A stretch of 64,000 nt of DNA from an uncultured Desulfurococcales archaeon (lineage in GTDB: Archaea; Thermoproteota; Thermoprotei_A; Sulfolobales; CAZFJX01), in contig CAZFJX010000006.1 in the NCBI GenBank assembly GCA_964519505.1, forward strand, positions 29,899 through 93,898, in the 5' to 3' direction. Below are positions 6,240 through 47,405 of this stretch, piece after piece (within the stretch, counting starts at the first letter, position 1; the number at the start of each line of letters is the position of its first letter). A model generated the notes under the pieces. The model saw only the letters and a list, made by a program, of their open reading frames with translations. It was not told the DNA's origin and did no database searches. Position numbers and translations under genes: made by a program.

Positions 6240-6563
6240 CTACTTAAGGTGTTCTCTACACTTACTTTTAATGTCACTTAACACTCCCCTAATTAACTCA
6301 ATCAATTTGTTCTTACTTAGTCCTACTACCCTAGTATTAGCTAACAGTCTACTTACTCTATCTATTAGTTCATCCACGTTTACTATCCTTAAACCTTTAA
6401 GGAAGTCTTCAAGCTGATCAATGACTTCGGGCGGTATCACGAAGAAGTCACCATTTATTAAGAACTCCTTAATTATGCATGTTTCACTGGCTTTAGCGAT
6501 TATTTCCACGTACTTCCCCTCAGGCTCCTTATAAAACTTAATTACTTCAATCAAGCATACCAC
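6240..6563 (-). CDS. Lipoate-protein ligase C-terminal (accessory) domain protein, LplB-like
   Basis: 107 aa. Abuts the catalytic-domain gene with no gap. INGDFFVIPPEVIDQLEDFLKG resembles the Lip_prot_lig_C domain (GDFF..P motif). Confidence 0.65.
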   Translation of the reverse strand: MVCLIEVIKFYKEPEGKYVEIIAKASETCIIKEFLINGDFFVIPPEVIDQLEDFLKGLRIVNVDELIDRVSRLLANTRVVGLSKNKLIELIRGVLSDIKSKCREHLK

Positions 6564-7325
6564 CTAAGGCCTTAAGAACTTCCATTTACCTGACATATAC
6601 TTATACCTTAATGATTTAGCTAAATCAAGTTCTAGAGGTGTTAGTGATGTCTCCACTAACTTTATACCTAAGGCCTTACTGAAGCCCTTCTTTAAAGCCT
6701 CTATAGCCTCCTCCTTACTTACCTTCCTACCTATGGACTCTGAGATTGTAATTACTCTACTTCTAATATTGACTACACCTTTAGTCTTTAACTTAGCTAG
6801 TGGCACTTGAAGGACTTTAGAAAGTAGGTCTAGGTCGGTATCATACATGAACGTACCATGCTGTAATACGGTCCCAAACTTTATTGTCATAGCTTGACCA
6901 GAGAACTTCCTACCACCGATAACTACGTCATTAAGTGGTACGAACTCAGCATCAGCTCCTAGGTACTTAGCTGCTTCAACAACTCCACGTGTGATTACCC
7001 TAAATATCTCTTCAGGTTCCTTAGGTAAGTTTTCGACCTTAGTAATAAATGCGTAAGTTATTTCTCCGTTCTCATCATGGTATACGGAACCACCACCAGT
7101 GATTCTCCTAGTGAAGTCAATGTCCCTCTCCTTAACTAGCTCAAGGTTTAAACACCTAGATACGCTTTGGAAGTAACCTATGGTTATGGCTGATGGCTTA
7201 ATAACGTATAGCCTTAATGTATCGGGTATTAAGTCCTTTGATCTAAGGTAAAGTAGTGCTTCATCAATAGCCATTTGTAAGTAAACATCACCCTCAATGA
7301 ATACATACCTAACCTCCTTAACCAT
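6564..7325 (-). CDS. lplA: Lipoate-protein ligase A, catalytic (BPL/LPL) domain only
   Basis: RRITGGGSVYHD, GRKFSGQA (lipoyl-AMP-binding lysine context) and HGTFMYDTDL are LplA family signatures. At 253 aa it lacks the C-terminal domain. Confidence 0.8.
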   Translation of the reverse strand: MVKEVRYVFIEGDVYLQMAIDEALLYLRSKDLIPDTLRLYVIKPSAITIGYFQSVSRCLNLELVKERDIDFTRRITGGGSVYHDENGEITYAFITKVENLPKEPEEIFRVITRGVVEAAKYLGADAEFVPLNDVVIGGRKFSGQAMTIKFGTVLQHGTFMYDTDLDLLSKVLQVPLAKLKTKGVVNIRSRVITISESIGRKVSKEEAIEALKKGFSKALGIKLVETSLTPLELDLAKSLRYKYMSGKWKFLRP

Positions 7326-29225: not shown

Positions 29226-29564
29226 TTACTTAAGAATAAGCGATATGATTAAAGATACCGCCAACACTATAAAGAAAGTCATTAACACTTTAATGTTAGG
29301 GAGTATAATATACAGTAACAAGGGCGTAATCAAGGAGAGCACTAATGAATATATGAGCTTCGCTTTAGGTGCTTTGACAAATAGTACAGTTAAAGAGATT
29401 AAGTATAAAGCCATGGCTAAGGAAAATGACGGTATGTAAGTTCCCAGACTTAGATACATATTGAAATACATAGATATTGTTACGTATGTTAAGCATATTG
29501 CTGATATGAAGACTGAGTAATATATTAAAAGTTCATAACGCGCTAATGACTCATTATTAATCAA
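29226..29564 (-). CDS. Hypothetical integral membrane protein
   Basis: Three or four hydrophobic helices. The same frame stays open and hydrophobic (..LLQDYLIIAVLVIALIVKVLSRGYALIDLVLISLGVFLITYVLFYKGL..) up to about 29733 without an ATG/GTG/TTG. The true 5' end is therefore uncertain, or the gene is degraded. Confidence 0.4.
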   Translation of the reverse strand: MINNESLARYELLIYYSVFISAICLTYVTISMYFNMYLSLGTYIPSFSLAMALYLISLTVLFVKAPKAKLIYSLVLSLITPLLLYIILPNIKVLMTFFIVLAVSLIISLILK

Positions 29565-29818
29565 GCCCTTATAGAAAAGTACATAAGTAATTAGGAAGAC
29601 CCCTAAGGAAATAAGTACTAAATCAATTAACGCATAACCTCTAGATAATACCTTAACAATGAGTGCAATGACAAGGACAGCAATTATTAAATAATCCTGT
29701 AAGAGTTTAGTTACCGCTATGACCCCATCCCATACTTAATAAGTTTATAACCAATATTTAATACATACCTCAAAACAGTTATTACGTAAACATACGTAGA
29801 TTATTTAGGTCAAAGTAT

Positions 29819-30571
29819 ATGCTAATAGATAAGTTATGTAGTGAGTTAATTAAGTACCTACCAAATAATTTAAAAATTGTTGATAGTTGTGTGGGTATTA
29901 AATACACATGTACGGTCGTTAGTGATGGAGTTAGGAGATCCATAGGTGTTGCCTATACACCACTTGAGGATATAGTACATGCTGAGGAGAAGGTTCCTGA
30001 GCCTAGATTTGATAATATGTGTTCCTTAATTAGCTCGGTAGACCCTATTAAAAAGGCGCTAGGATTATCGATTATGAATGCAATATCTCAATACTTAGTT
30101 AATGAGAGGACACTAATTAAGGAAAGAAACCTTATCAAGTACCTAAGGATAACACCTAAAGATTACGTAGTTATTGTTGGTTATATGGAACCCTTAGTTA
30201 AGGAGGTTAGAAAGTTTACCAAGAACTTATATGTACTTGAGAGGAACCCAGCCATTAGGAGGGATGGACTATCTGATATAGCTGCTTGGAGAGTCTTACC
30301 TAAAGCTACTAAGGTAATTATCTCAGGTGCCGTGCTAGTTAACGACACTTTAGACATGATTCTAGAGCTTAGTGAGAATGCTGATGAGAAAGTTATTACA
30401 GGGCCTACGGCTCAGCTATTACCCTACCTATTTTTCAATATTGGATTAACAGGTGTTGCTAGCTTAAGAATAACTGATGTAGATAAGGCAGCTAGAGCAG
30501 TAAGGTTAGGTGGTGGGGCTAGGGTTTTATATAAACTAGGCTTTAAGTACATAGTCTTTAGGTCTAGGTAA
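29819..30571 (+). CDS. DUF4213/DUF364-type putative heavy-metal chelation (Rossmann-like) protein
   Basis: Layout and motifs (VGIKYTCTVVSDG..GVAYTP in the N-domain, VVIVGYMEPLV Rossmann-like C-domain) resemble the DUF364 family. Confidence 0.55.
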   Translation: MLIDKLCSELIKYLPNNLKIVDSCVGIKYTCTVVSDGVRRSIGVAYTPLEDIVHAEEKVPEPRFDNMCSLISSVDPIKKALGLSIMNAISQYLVNERTLIKERNLIKYLRITPKDYVVIVGYMEPLVKEVRKFTKNLYVLERNPAIRRDGLSDIAAWRVLPKATKVIISGAVLVNDTLDMILELSENADEKVITGPTAQLLPYLFFNIGLTGVASLRITDVDKAARAVRLGGGARVLYKLGFKYIVFRSR

Positions 30572-43444: not shown

Positions 43445-44005
43445 TTAAATAGATATCTTAAACTCCTTTACGCTTAACTTGCCTAATCCCCTATCTAGTT
43501 CGTAAAGTAATAATTTAAGTGTAGGTTCTGAGTAATAAGCGATTATTAATGATGGTTTCATAGAGCCCCCACAACCACTCCATGTACCTGTCAATGATCC
43601 CGGATTTATATGGTAAATACCTTGGTACTCCTTAATGAAGGGGTCATGCGTATGACCGCTAATAAGTATCTTAACTCCCAACTCTCTCGCTAGAAGGGTT
43701 AACTTCCTAATGTTTCCCCTAGGATATACTTGATCACCATGAACTACACCGAAATCGCACTTACCTAACTTAAATACCTCACTTATGGGTAGCCCTAACC
43801 AATCCATATTACCTTCAACAGCATAAACCTCACGTCCTAAACTCTTAACCCACCTATAGATCTCCTCAGAGGTATAGTCACCTGTATGTATAACTATGTC
43901 GTAAGGTCTTTCACTCTCTATAATCTTGAGTAGTTGCCTAGGTATCTCTAAAGCCCTATCAGGTATGTGAGTATCACCTATTATTAATAACTTCCTACTC
44001 ACCAC
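43445..44005 (-). CDS. Metallophosphoesterase, YfcE/MJ0936 family
   Basis: GDTHIP, HTGD, GNMD and GHTH motifs of calcineurin-like phosphoesterases. 186 aa. Confidence 0.8.
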   Translation of the reverse strand: MVSRKLLIIGDTHIPDRALEIPRQLLKIIESERPYDIVIHTGDYTSEEIYRWVKSLGREVYAVEGNMDWLGLPISEVFKLGKCDFGVVHGDQVYPRGNIRKLTLLARELGVKILISGHTHDPFIKEYQGIYHINPGSLTGTWSGCGGSMKPSLIIAYYSEPTLKLLLYELDRGLGKLSVKEFKISI

Positions 44006-44102
44006 AGCTTCAGATTATATTACTATATTCACAACCTTATAAGCAAGTTAACTAAAACTTCATTAGTCCCCACATAAACCTAATCAGTGTAAGGGCTTAC
44101 CA

Positions 44103-45056
44103 ATGCTGATAAGAGTCTCTTACGGAACCCTAATAACATTAAGAGGTGATGGTGTTCTTAGTAAGGTTGCTTACCTACTCCAATACTCAGAGAACGGTTG
44201 CTTAGGTAACTGCGCATTCTGCCCTCAATCACGTACATCAAAATCAAGTAGGGAGTTACTATCGAGGGTTGTCTGGCCAGCCCAAAACCTAAGTGATATT
44301 ATTAAGTTATTAAGAAGTAGCTCAGTTATTAAGAGGGTATGTCTCCAGACCCTAATCACCAAGGACTACCCTAATGATATATACGTATTAATTAAGGAGT
44401 TAAATAAGTGTGGGAAGCCTCTATCGCTATCAATAACCCCAGTCCCTAAGGAGTTCTTACTTAAGGTTAGGAACCTAGGCGTTGATTACTTAGGTATAGG
44501 TCTAGACTCCATAGACCCCAATGTGTTCCTAAAATTAAGGAAGCCTTACGGTTGGGCTAAGTACTTCGATTTCATTAATGAGTCTGTTAAGGTCTTCGGT
44601 AAAGATAGGGTTGTTACACACGTAATTATAGGGCTGGGTGAGGATATAGGTACGTCCATTAAAGTACTAAAATACATTAGAGAGTTGGGGTCATTAATAT
44701 CTCTCTTCGCATTCACACCAATTAAGGGTACCGCCCTTGAGAGCCTTACGAGGCCTAACTTGAGGTACTATAGGTTTATGCAGGTAATTACACATTTACT
44801 CAATAGGGGCTTACTAAATATAGGTGATTATGTAGTAGTTAAGGGCTGCAAATTCGGTTTTAGGAAGAGAATCATGGGGTTACTAAATGACGAGGTTTTA
44901 GTGAAGTCCTTGATAGTTAATGGTTGTCCATACTGCAATAGGCCTTACTATACGGAGTCACCTAAAGGTCCTTACTACAACTACCCGAGACCTGAGTATA
45001 TTAGGGCTAACTTAAGTAATGAATGGAAGTTAATTAAGGGGTTAATTATTGAGTAG
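44103..45056 (+). CDS. Radical SAM protein, biotin-synthase-related (candidate LipS-type)
   Basis: CxxxCxxC at CLGNCAFCPQ, TIM-barrel-like length (317 aa), extra C-terminal CxxC (NGCPYCN). 8-nt overlap with the next radical-SAM gene. Confidence 0.7.
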   Translation: MLIRVSYGTLITLRGDGVLSKVAYLLQYSENGCLGNCAFCPQSRTSKSSRELLSRVVWPAQNLSDIIKLLRSSSVIKRVCLQTLITKDYPNDIYVLIKELNKCGKPLSLSITPVPKEFLLKVRNLGVDYLGIGLDSIDPNVFLKLRKPYGWAKYFDFINESVKVFGKDRVVTHVIIGLGEDIGTSIKVLKYIRELGSLISLFAFTPIKGTALESLTRPNLRYYRFMQVITHLLNRGLLNIGDYVVVKGCKFGFRKRIMGLLNDEVLVKSLIVNGCPYCNRPYYTESPKGPYYNYPRPEYIRANLSNEWKLIKGLIIE

Positions 45057-45888
45057 GCCCTTAGCTTTCATACCTGAACCTAAATACATACCGGTAAGCA
45101 TAACTGGAGCTAAGTGCGAACTTAACTGCCTCAACTGTAGGGGTAGATACCTTAAGACCATGATTCCTGCTAAGACCCCTAAGAGACTGAAGGAGGTATT
45201 ACTAAGGCATTGGTTAAGAGGTGGTTATGGAGCCTTAATTAGTGGTGGCTTTACCAAGAAGGGGGTTTTGCCCATATCTAAAGAGTTTATTGAAGTGATT
45301 AAGTACATGAAGAAAGAGACAAACCTACTTATCAGCATACACACGGGTCTCATAAGTAAGGAACTCATTTTAGAGCTTTACAGTGCTGGTGTTGACTTTA
45401 TAGATTTTGAGGTACCACCGTCGAATAACTTCTTACGTAAGGTAAAGAACTTAATGAATCTTGATGTGAGCATGTATATTAAGACCCTCCAATACATGCT
45501 GACCTTACGTAAAGATTTCGCAATACCTCACATAATTATCGGTAATAAATATAGTACGTCAAATGAGGAGTTAAGTATCCTGGAAGAAATCTCCAACTTA
45601 AACCCATACATGGTGACTGTGCTTGCTGAGATACATATATATAAAGGCATTGAAGACCTAATTACTAGGGTTATTAATTCATTAAAATACCTAAGAAGTA
45701 TATTTAGAGGTGAAGTCGCCTTAGGATGCATGAGGCCCTTTAGGTTTAAGTACTTAATTGATAAACTAATTATTTCTGAAGGTTTAGTAGATAGAATAGC
45801 TAATCCCCATCCTTATGTGGCTAGGAAGTTTAAGTTAAGAACCTTAAATCTTTGCTGCAGTGTTCCTAATCTAAGTAAGTACATTTGA
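45049..45888 (+). CDS. Radical SAM protein, biotin-synthase-related (candidate LipS-type partner)
   Basis: CxxxCxxC at CELNCLNCRG, GGYGALISGG glycine-rich SAM-binding-like stretch. 279 aa. Confidence 0.65.
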   Translation: MSRPLAFIPEPKYIPVSITGAKCELNCLNCRGRYLKTMIPAKTPKRLKEVLLRHWLRGGYGALISGGFTKKGVLPISKEFIEVIKYMKKETNLLISIHTGLISKELILELYSAGVDFIDFEVPPSNNFLRKVKNLMNLDVSMYIKTLQYMLTLRKDFAIPHIIIGNKYSTSNEELSILEEISNLNPYMVTVLAEIHIYKGIEDLITRVINSLKYLRSIFRGEVALGCMRPFRFKYLIDKLIISEGLVDRIANPHPYVARKFKLRTLNLCCSVPNLSKYI

Positions 45889-45944: not shown

Positions 45945-46889
45945 TTGAATATCAAGGAGTTACTAAGTAAGGCGCTGAGTAGGGATAAGTTTTGGTTAGC
46001 TAAGCTAATCTCATTACTTGAGGCTAACCCGGAACTTCTTCTTGAGTACGGGGACTTGATTTGGAAAAGGAGCGGTAGGGCCCATGTGATTGGTGTCACT
46101 GGTGTTGGTGGTGCCGGTAAATCCACCTTAATAGCTTCTTTAGTTAGATTAATGAGAAGCGATGGTAAGTACATAGGTATTGTCTCTATAGACCCCTCAT
46201 CACCTTACTCAGGGGGAGCTATCCTAGGTGATAGGGTCAGGATTCAGAAGTCTATTAATTCAGGCATATATATGAGGTCGGTAACAGCCCCACCGGAGGA
46301 GGTCCTGCCCTGGAAGGCTTTAGTTACTTTGGAAGTTCTCGATGCCGCAGGTTTTGACTACATAATTGTTGAGACTGTAGGTGCTGCTCAATCAAGTGTT
46401 GATGTAGCTAACTTAGTAGACACTATAGTCGTGGTTATAGTCCCTGGTACTGGTGACGATATTCAGGCACTTAAAGCAGGTCTAATGGAGATAGGCGACA
46501 TATACGTGATTAGTAAGTGCGATAAACCCGAGGCTGAAGTTACGTATCTGCAGGTAAAGACCGTCCTTGGAGGCATTGTTAGGGATGGGTGGGAGGTACC
46601 CATACTTATGACTTCAGCATTAATGAATAAAGGGATTAAAGAGCTATACAGTAAGATACTTGAGCACCACGAGTTTATGATTAAGAAGGGTATTTTAGAG
46701 ATTAGGCGTAGAAGGCGCTATGCTAAGGAGGTTGAGTTAATGGCTCTAGAGTTAATGAAGAGGAGGATAAGGGAGTTGATGGAGGAGGATAAGGAGTTAA
46801 GGGGTTTGATTAATAAGGTTATTAGTAAGGAGGTTAATCCCTTTAAGGTAGCGCACCAGATAGTTAAGGCGCTATTAGGTGGTAGGTGA
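45945..46889 (+). CDS. meaB: MeaB/ArgK-type G3E-family GTPase (metallochaperone)
   Basis: P-loop GVTGVGGAGKSTL, switch regions SIDPSSPYSGGAILGDR and VETVGAAQS, NKxD-like SKCD. Confidence 0.85.
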   Translation: MNIKELLSKALSRDKFWLAKLISLLEANPELLLEYGDLIWKRSGRAHVIGVTGVGGAGKSTLIASLVRLMRSDGKYIGIVSIDPSSPYSGGAILGDRVRIQKSINSGIYMRSVTAPPEEVLPWKALVTLEVLDAAGFDYIIVETVGAAQSSVDVANLVDTIVVVIVPGTGDDIQALKAGLMEIGDIYVISKCDKPEAEVTYLQVKTVLGGIVRDGWEVPILMTSALMNKGIKELYSKILEHHEFMIKKGILEIRRRRRYAKEVELMALELMKRRIRELMEEDKELRGLINKVISKEVNPFKVAHQIVKALLGGR

Positions 46890-46895
46890 GGTATT

Positions 46896-47405
46896 TTGAG
46901 GCTCAGTATTAGGTTAGTTAAAATAGCTTTAATAACAGCTATATATGCGGCGGTAACAACATTGCTAATGCCTATCTCTTACGGGTTGATACAGGTTAGG
47001 GTTAGTGATGTCTTAATGCCCTTACCTTACATACGTTTCTTCGGTATTGAGGCAGTCATAGGGTTAACCTTAGGCACGCTAATAGCTAACCTAATGTCCC
47101 CATTCGGAATACCTGACGTGATTCTAGGCTCGCTAGCTAATTTAATATCAGGTCTTGGTAGTTACCTCATCGGCAAGTACTTAGGTGGTAAGGTCGTTGG
47201 AAGGGTATTGGCTTGTTTGATCCCCGTAGCTGTTATCTCTTTCATAATAGGGTATGTGCTTCTCGGCATCATATATTACGAATTTATTGGTGTAGAGCCT
47301 TTAATGGCTATGGGGTTTGTAGCTATTGGTGAGGCTATATCGGCGGGTATAGGTGGTTTCTTACTAATTACGTATTTGGAGAAGACATTAGGTATGCGTA
47401 AGTAG
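46896..47405 (+). CDS. queT: QueT-like membrane transporter (ECF S-component type)
   Basis: 169 aa, about 5 TM. The N-terminal pattern KIALITAIYAAVTTLLMPISYGLIQVRVSDVL resembles the QueT family. Confidence 0.6.
   Translation: MRLSIRLVKIALITAIYAAVTTLLMPISYGLIQVRVSDVLMPLPYIRFFGIEAVIGLTLGTLIANLMSPFGIPDVILGSLANLISGLGSYLIGKYLGGKVVGRVLACLIPVAVISFIIGYVLLGIIYYEFIGVEPLMAMGFVAIGEAISAGIGGFLLITYLEKTLGMRK

Follow-up and report, generated by a model that had tools for sequence, protein, structure and literature searches.

Do two overlapping genes for radical-SAM proteins in an archaeal genome encode a lipoyl synthase made up of two proteins? The genes lie in a stretch of 64,000 nucleotides, called here, at its full length, the window, and an earlier note on this DNA had taken them for a synthase of the LipS1/LipS2 type. 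Comparison with family models identifies the first gene as lipS2 and the second as lipS1 and so bears out this suggestion. It is very probable (about 0.9) that the pair is LipS2 plus LipS1, the archaeal two-protein lipoyl synthase. The enzyme, its distribution among Thermoproteota and the frequent adjacency of its genes have all been published before, and the assignment is an ordinary annotation of a known pathway. It does provide a function for two genes that public annotation leaves at "radical SAM protein" or "biotin synthase", and it completes the lipoylation pathway, with GcvH as the single acceptor, for a deeply branching, family-level lineage. Of interest to specialists are two well-separated LipS lineages in the order, which differ in gene order and in the acceptor genes nearby.

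Organization of the Locus

The gene lipS2 (ORF1; 44103-45056, plus strand) starts with ATG and encodes 317 amino acids, and lipS1 (ORF2; 45049-45888, plus strand) starts with TTG and encodes 279. The end of lipS2, including its stop codon, and the TTG start of lipS1 overlap by 8 nt (TTGAGTAG; 45049-45056, plus strand), as read from the sequence, which confirms the two co-directional, overlapping genes described earlier. The order is lipS2 followed by lipS1, and the earlier note is corrected on this point. Both start sites are backed by homologues: the N-terminus MLIRVSYGT is found in ORF1 as well as in the Thermococcus proteins, which align with it residue for residue, and an N-terminus of the form xxxxxAFIP is common to ORF2 and its relatives. 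The cysteine motifs reported in the earlier note are all present as well. ORF1 contains CLGNCAFC (C33/C37/C40) and, with the CPYC segment, GCPYCNRPYY (C275/C278), and ORF2 contains CELNCLNC (C23/C27/C30), GCMRP (C227) and LCCS (C269/C270).

A purine run, AAGGGG, is located at 45036-45041, 7 nt 5' of the lipS1 start, and AAGGG is found at 44091-44095 before the lipS2 start, so that both genes have the same AAGGG-N7-start spacing. These runs are candidate ribosome-binding sites. The 97-nt intergenic region upstream of lipS2 (44006-44102), which it has in common with a divergent gene on the minus strand (43445-44005), contains AT-rich, TATA-like boxes, e.g., TTATAA at 44037-44042. Judged by its sequence, it presumably contains the promoter of the lipS2-lipS1 unit. 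The two genes are probably co-transcribed, and translational coupling at the overlap is probable.

The region downstream of lipS1 (45945-47405) encodes, in the same direction, a G-protein chaperone of the MeaB type (243.7 bits) and the transporter QueT. The spacer between lipS1 and meaB measures 56 nt, is AT-rich and contains the TATA-like sequence TTTAATAA. The MeaB GTPase and QueT were considered as parts of the lipS unit and rejected, since they belong to unrelated families and the AT-rich 56-nt spacer lies in between; they are probably unrelated neighbors.

Assignment to the LipS2 and LipS1 Families

In the HMM search, ORF1 matched the NCBIfam model for LipS2 (NF053743) with 269.3 bits (E 4e-80) over all model positions (1-292/292). 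This is 0.7 bit under the curated equivalog cut-off of 270 bits; 26 of the 57 genomes of the same order that have a LipS2 match are under this cut-off as well. ORF2 matched the LipS1 model (NF053742) with 200.8 bits (E 3e-59), again over the full model (1-268/268), and is thereby about 29-30 bits under the curated equivalog cut-off of 230 bits; 16 of the 58 LipS1-containing genomes of the order are likewise below it, and many of the relatives that miss the two cut-offs are unambiguous. Both matches are far beyond chance.

Other radical-SAM families are much more distant. The runner-up families for ORF1 were BioB (E 1e-8), PylB (3e-5) and HydE (1e-3); for ORF2, the family next after LipS1 scored 22 bits, and the best other named family was a tungsten-cofactor maturase (E 6e-5). 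The E-values of BioB, PylB and HydE exceed those of the LipS2 and LipS1 models by more than 50 orders of magnitude. The LipA model (TIGR00510) is absent from the matches of both ORFs at E<=0.01, and the BioB model (TIGR00433, cut-off 225 bits) gave 34.6 bits with ORF1 and no match with ORF2. Thus, the view that the proteins are neither LipA nor BioB themselves was correct. The earlier note had also held that closest kinship with families such as PylB, HydE or ThiH would speak against a lipoyl synthase; as these other families are far weaker than the LipS models (E 1e-8 or worse), this objection falls away. In Pfam, ORF1 matches only the general Radical_SAM domain, and a Pfam search of ORF2 found no domain, Radical_SAM included. 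The closest PDB sequences to ORF1 are PylB and HydE (E~1e-4 to 1e-3), and none matches ORF2; to our knowledge, no LipS structure has been solved.

The fact that both scores are below the equivalog cut-offs is also what might be expected of a paralogous, LipS-like system that inserts sulfur into another substrate, i.e., another acyl-lysine or a cofactor precursor such as one of the biotin type, in which case GcvH would be lipoylated solely by LplA/LplB with scavenged lipoate. The annotation of LipS homologues as "biotin synthase" in public sources would fit such a system. However, the 34.6 bits of ORF1 against a BioB cut-off of 225 bits do not, and many members of the clade to which the window pair belongs (see below) are above the NCBIfam cut-offs. 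The bearing of residue conservation, co-occurrence and gene neighborhood on this alternative is considered where these are described.

Catalytic and Auxiliary-Cluster Residues

LipS2 and LipS1 of Thermococcus kodakarensis are TK2248 and TK2109, respectively (Jin et al., 2020, as cited in PMC9585515 and PMC13692748). By mutagenesis, the important residues were identified as C39/C43/C46 in the radical-SAM motif of LipS2, with C85, C276 and C279 as ligands of its auxiliary cluster, and as C27/C31/C34 in the motif of LipS1, with the auxiliary ligands C230, C276 and C277, and a fully conserved H159 (Neti et al., 2022, PMC9585515). These residue numbers were mapped onto the window proteins via orthologues from Thermococcus spp. 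and Pyrococcus rather than via TK2109 and TK2248 themselves. The LipS2 residues C33/C37/C40, C80, C275 and C278, the last two located in GCPxCNRPYY, are invariant among 75 homologues and align with those of the Thermococcus and Pyrococcus proteins. In LipS1, C23/C27/C30, H161 (in PHI), C227 (in GCMRP) and C269/C270 (the C-terminal CC) are invariant among 80 homologues and align with those of Thermococcus LipS1. Thus, all the residues found by mutagenesis to be functionally important in T. kodakarensis LipS are kept in the window pair, at an overall identity to the Thermococcus orthologues of 28-29% for LipS1 and 37-40% for LipS2. The invariance of all LipS1- and LipS2-specific residues, including the C-terminal CC, the CxxC and the His of LipS1, argues against insertion of sulfur into another substrate.

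The AF2 model of LipS2 has a pLDDT of 94.6, and its nearest solved folds are HydE, BioB, PylB and LipA/LIAS. For the model of LipS1 (pLDDT 96.2), they are BioB (TM 0.64-0.65) and HydE, and LipA is also among the fold matches. The fold searches confirm this structural neighborhood of BioB, HydE, PylB and LipA, within which function is not discriminated by fold.

The Lipoylation Pathway in the Same Genome

The assembly comprises 1.64 Mb in 50 contigs and is 99.56% complete. Within the window, the earlier note had seen no LipA-like gene, and this holds for the genome as a whole: the LipA model (TIGR00510) has no match anywhere in it at E<=0.001, and the target that a lipoyl synthase needs, GcvH, is present. 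The split LplA/LplB ligase noted before at 6240-7325 was recovered with the corresponding models. Its large, catalytic subunit, lplA (6564-7325, minus strand), matches PF21948 (3e-51) and the LplA_large model NF053750 (7.5e-66), and a whole-genome search with PF21948 showed that it contains the sole catalytic domain of the LplA/LipB/LipM type in the genome. The small accessory subunit, lplB (6240-6563, minus strand; 107 aa), abuts lplA directly and matches the LplB model NF053749 with E 6e-12 and 45.5 bits, at a cut-off of 65, as well as, weakly, Lip_prot_lig_C (2.7e-3). These two genes are on the strand opposite to the lipS pair, at a distance of about 37 kb.

A single, canonical GcvH is encoded in the genome. 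It scores 169.9 bits with the GcvH subfamily model, contains the lipoyl-lysine motif LESVKT, and its gene adjoins gcvT and faces gcvPA/gcvPB. The only other protein with a biotin/lipoyl domain in the genome is BCCP-like (biotin carboxyl carrier protein), and nothing in the genome matches the E2 catalytic domain; GcvH is the only lipoyl acceptor. Hence, LipS2, LipS1, LplA/LplB and GcvH are present and LipA is absent, which is the combination that defines the Lpl/LipS1/S2 pathway (PMC10332631). The remaining two genes for biotin/lipoate protein ligases (BPL) are of the BirA type.

The glycine cleavage system is not complete in the textbook sense, as no canonical dihydrolipoamide dehydrogenase (L protein, TIGR01350) is found in the genome at the cut-off of 408.8; the best match has 146 bits. 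This best match is a 473-aa flavoprotein disulfide reductase encoded outside the window (contig C16 of the window's genome, G000, 29313-30311).

The BirA-type paralogues, at C19:17831-18190 and C5:87482-87805 of the same genome, each have an N-terminal HTH domain, and it may be noted that a genome of 1.6 Mb has two such ligases and one BCCP-like protein.

Proposed Mechanism

By analogy with T. kodakarensis, in which a split ligase works together with LipS2 and LipS1 and the acceptor is the H protein (PMC13692748), LplA/LplB would attach free octanoate to GcvH at its lipoyl lysine. LipS2, the predicted enzyme for sulfur insertion at C8, would then abstract a hydrogen from C8 of octanoyl-GcvH with the [4Fe-4S] cluster of its CX3CX2C motif and SAM, and would donate a sulfur of its auxiliary [4Fe-4S] cluster, whose ligands are C80, C275 and C278, yielding 8-mercaptooctanoyl-GcvH. 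LipS1, the predicted enzyme for insertion at C6, would carry out the same chemistry at that position, with C227, C269, C270 and probably H161 as the ligands of its auxiliary cluster, and its product would be lipoyl-GcvH for the glycine cleavage system. Each enzyme would cleave one SAM and draw the sulfur from its own auxiliary [4Fe-4S] cluster. The order, C8 and then C6, the types of cluster and the sacrificial source of the sulfur are inferred from the biochemistry of the T. kodakarensis enzymes.

In T. kodakarensis, the genes for LipS1 and LipS2 are unlinked, and each protein acts alone in vitro on its own substrate, in sequence (PMC9585515). The description of the window pair as an obligate two-component enzyme was, therefore, overstated: since each Thermococcus LipS enzyme works alone in vitro, the overlap of the genes argues for stoichiometric co-expression rather than for an obligate complex.

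Comparison With Known Systems

The window pair resembles the T. kodakarensis enzymes in belonging to the same two HMM families and in the CX3CX2C motifs, in the auxiliary CxxC and upstream Cys of LipS2, and in the GCMRP Cys, the C-terminal CC and the His of LipS1. Neither genome has LipA; in both, the ligase is a split LplA/LplB and the acceptor is GcvH. In contrast, identity is only 28-40%, as measured against orthologues from Thermococcus spp., and the window pair is found in a separate clade in both trees (see below). Furthermore, the lipS genes of T. kodakarensis are more than 130 genes apart, whereas those in the window overlap by 8 nt.

The combination of Lpl with LipS1/S2 in the absence of LipA is also that of the sLpl(AB)-LipS1/S2 pathway (Tanabe et al., 2023, PMC10332631). 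According to the same study, lipS genes typically cluster with lplA/lplB, the typical archaeal order being lipS2-lplA-lplB-lipS1. In the window, however, lipS2 and lipS1 abut each other, and lplA-lplB, on the opposite strand, is separated from them by about 37 kb. The window's genome has a single GcvH-family gene and shows no sign of an extra acceptor of the LbpA type.

LipA/LIAS carries out the same net reaction as the LipS pair, is likewise built on a radical-SAM barrel and sacrifices an auxiliary [4Fe-4S] cluster. LipA is one protein that performs both insertions, the one at C6 first, and uses an N-terminal CX4CX5C motif and an RSSY motif. In the window's genome, which has no match to TIGR00510, this work would instead be divided over LipS2 and LipS1. 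BioB inserts a single sulfur per step, at the terminal carbon first. It is the best structural neighbor of the LipS1 model, but its substrate is dethiobiotin, whereas that of LipS is a protein-bound octanoyl group, and its HMM match is weak for ORF1 and absent for ORF2. Solved BioB structures include the type II enzyme with a 4Fe-5S cluster (PDB 8vcw and 8vdw; PMC10813225).

Co-occurrence and Linkage in the Order

Four models, those for LipS2, LipS1, LipA and GcvH, were run against 121 sampled genomes of the order. The window organism is the sole sampled member of its deeply branching, family-level lineage. LipS2 was found in 57 of the 121 genomes and LipS1 in 58, with identical tallies per family. 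LipA was present in 23 and occurred together with the LipS pair in only three (G034, G044 and G054), and a GcvH-family gene was detected in 101. All but two of the 57 genomes with LipS2 have a GcvH-family gene, and the completeness of those two is 63% and 90%. That the pair occurs almost only with a GcvH-family gene and almost never with LipA also argues against another substrate, although the genomes are related by kinship and are not independent, so that co-occurrence provides qualitative support only. On the other hand, many relatives, e.g., most of families f8 and f11, have GcvH and no synthase; they evidently live on scavenged lipoate, which is how GcvH would have to be served in the window organism if its LipS-like pair acted elsewhere. 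Across archaea, Lpl and LipS1/S2 without LipA were reported in 17% of the genomes, those of Thermoproteota included (Tanabe et al., 2023, PMC10332631).

Within the order, lipS1 follows lipS2 on the same strand in 40 of the 57 genomes, and the gap between the ends of their HMM matches does not exceed about 130 nt; thus, such close linkage is usual in this order. Among the ORF calls of 38 fetched loci, many lipS2/lipS1 junctions are 4-nt overlaps. Adjacency of lipS1 and lipS2 has often been observed in other organisms as well (Neti et al., 2022, PMC9585515).

Two LipS Lineages

Quick maximum-likelihood trees were built for LipS1 and LipS2 (IQ-TREE, LG+G4, SH-aLRT). They are congruent, and both split into two clades with 99-100% SH-aLRT support. 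The first clade contains Thermococcus, Asgard archaea (Thorarchaeota in the LipS2 tree), and Thermoplasmata or Methanomethylicia, together with pairs of a second type from the order under study, in which the genes are arranged as lipS1-lipS2 or divergently. The second clade contains the lipS2-lipS1 pairs of the order, Korarchaeota LipS1 (in the LipS1 tree) and the window pair. The LipS2 of the window is thus not in the Thermococcus LipS2 clade, and the separating branch has 100% SH-aLRT support. Two archaeal LipS2 clades, which may correspond to the two found here, were also mentioned for a BioB-rooted tree (Tanabe et al., 2023, PMC10332631).

This separation from the characterized Thermococcus enzymes is what would be expected if the window pair modified something other than octanoyl-GcvH. 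Published biochemistry could be linked only to the clade that holds Thermococcus and to no member of the window's clade. However, many members of the window's clade are above the NCBIfam LipS2 cut-off, which places this clade inside the family as NCBIfam draws it, whilst it is the LipS2 proteins of the second-type pairs, on the Thermococcus side, that are below the cut-off. Moreover, the window pair is the sister of the pairs of its nearest relatives, family f3 (97% support for LipS1 and 89% for LipS2), in which lipS1 and lipS2 flank a unit of lplA, lplB and a gene for a HAD phosphatase, so that this clade is physically tied to lipoate ligation; in one genome of the sample (G073), the pair abuts an LplA-type gene. 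All in all, action on another substrate is improbable. Still less credence can be given to chance adjacency or to a decaying copy that leaves only one active protein: the LipS1 score 30 bits below its cut-off, the failure of Pfam Radical_SAM to detect ORF2 and the long window branches in the two trees (0.66 and 0.93 vs. a median of 0.28, as is expected of the sole sampled member of a family) might suggest it, but both frames are intact and of full length with all catalytic residues kept, the AF2 models are very confident, a LipS1 homologue of the same length and with 93% identity exists in another assembly, and 40 of the 57 genomes have the two genes side by side in this way.

In some genomes of the order, among relatives that include G073 (loci L089 and L090), G012, G023, G044, G057, G076, G099, G103 and others, two paralogous pairs of different clades are found, and in G073 a separate LplA-type gene accompanies each of the two pairs. 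At all 13 sampled loci of the second type, the pair is 1-6 kb from an extra, divergent, low-scoring GcvH-like gene. Beside the second pair of G073, LplA-like and GcvH-like genes were found and no Hdr subunits (sHdr) among the ORFs scanned; for this reason, the GcvH-like acceptors are not called LbpA here. The window lineage may be dedicated to canonical GcvH, and the second, Thermococcus-side lineage may serve other acceptors. We tentatively suggest, as a possibility that is rather less likely to be right than wrong, that archaea, instead of one general synthase, have separate lipoyl-synthase modules for different acceptors, every module with a ligase of its own, the window lineage serving GcvH and the second lineage other acceptors.

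Variation Among Related Loci

In one locus of a relative (L069, G022:C45), a 252-aa ORF with no NCBIfam match is located between lipS2 and lipS1 (1270-2028). In relatives of family f13 (G012:C1:18417-19094, G103:C1:396576-397250, and also in G023, G089, G117, G064 and G082), the LipS1 genes with the highest scores have a LipS2 partner whose match is confined to model positions ~4-240, in open frames of 274-293 aa; as far as can be judged from these frames, the f13 LipS2 proteins may lack the C-terminal CxxC region with the auxiliary ligands. Finally, in the closest LipS relatives (locus L082, G056:C7), the gene at 1227-1922, co-oriented with lplA-lplB between lipS1 and lipS2, encodes a HAD hydrolase resembling archaeal phosphoserine phosphatase.
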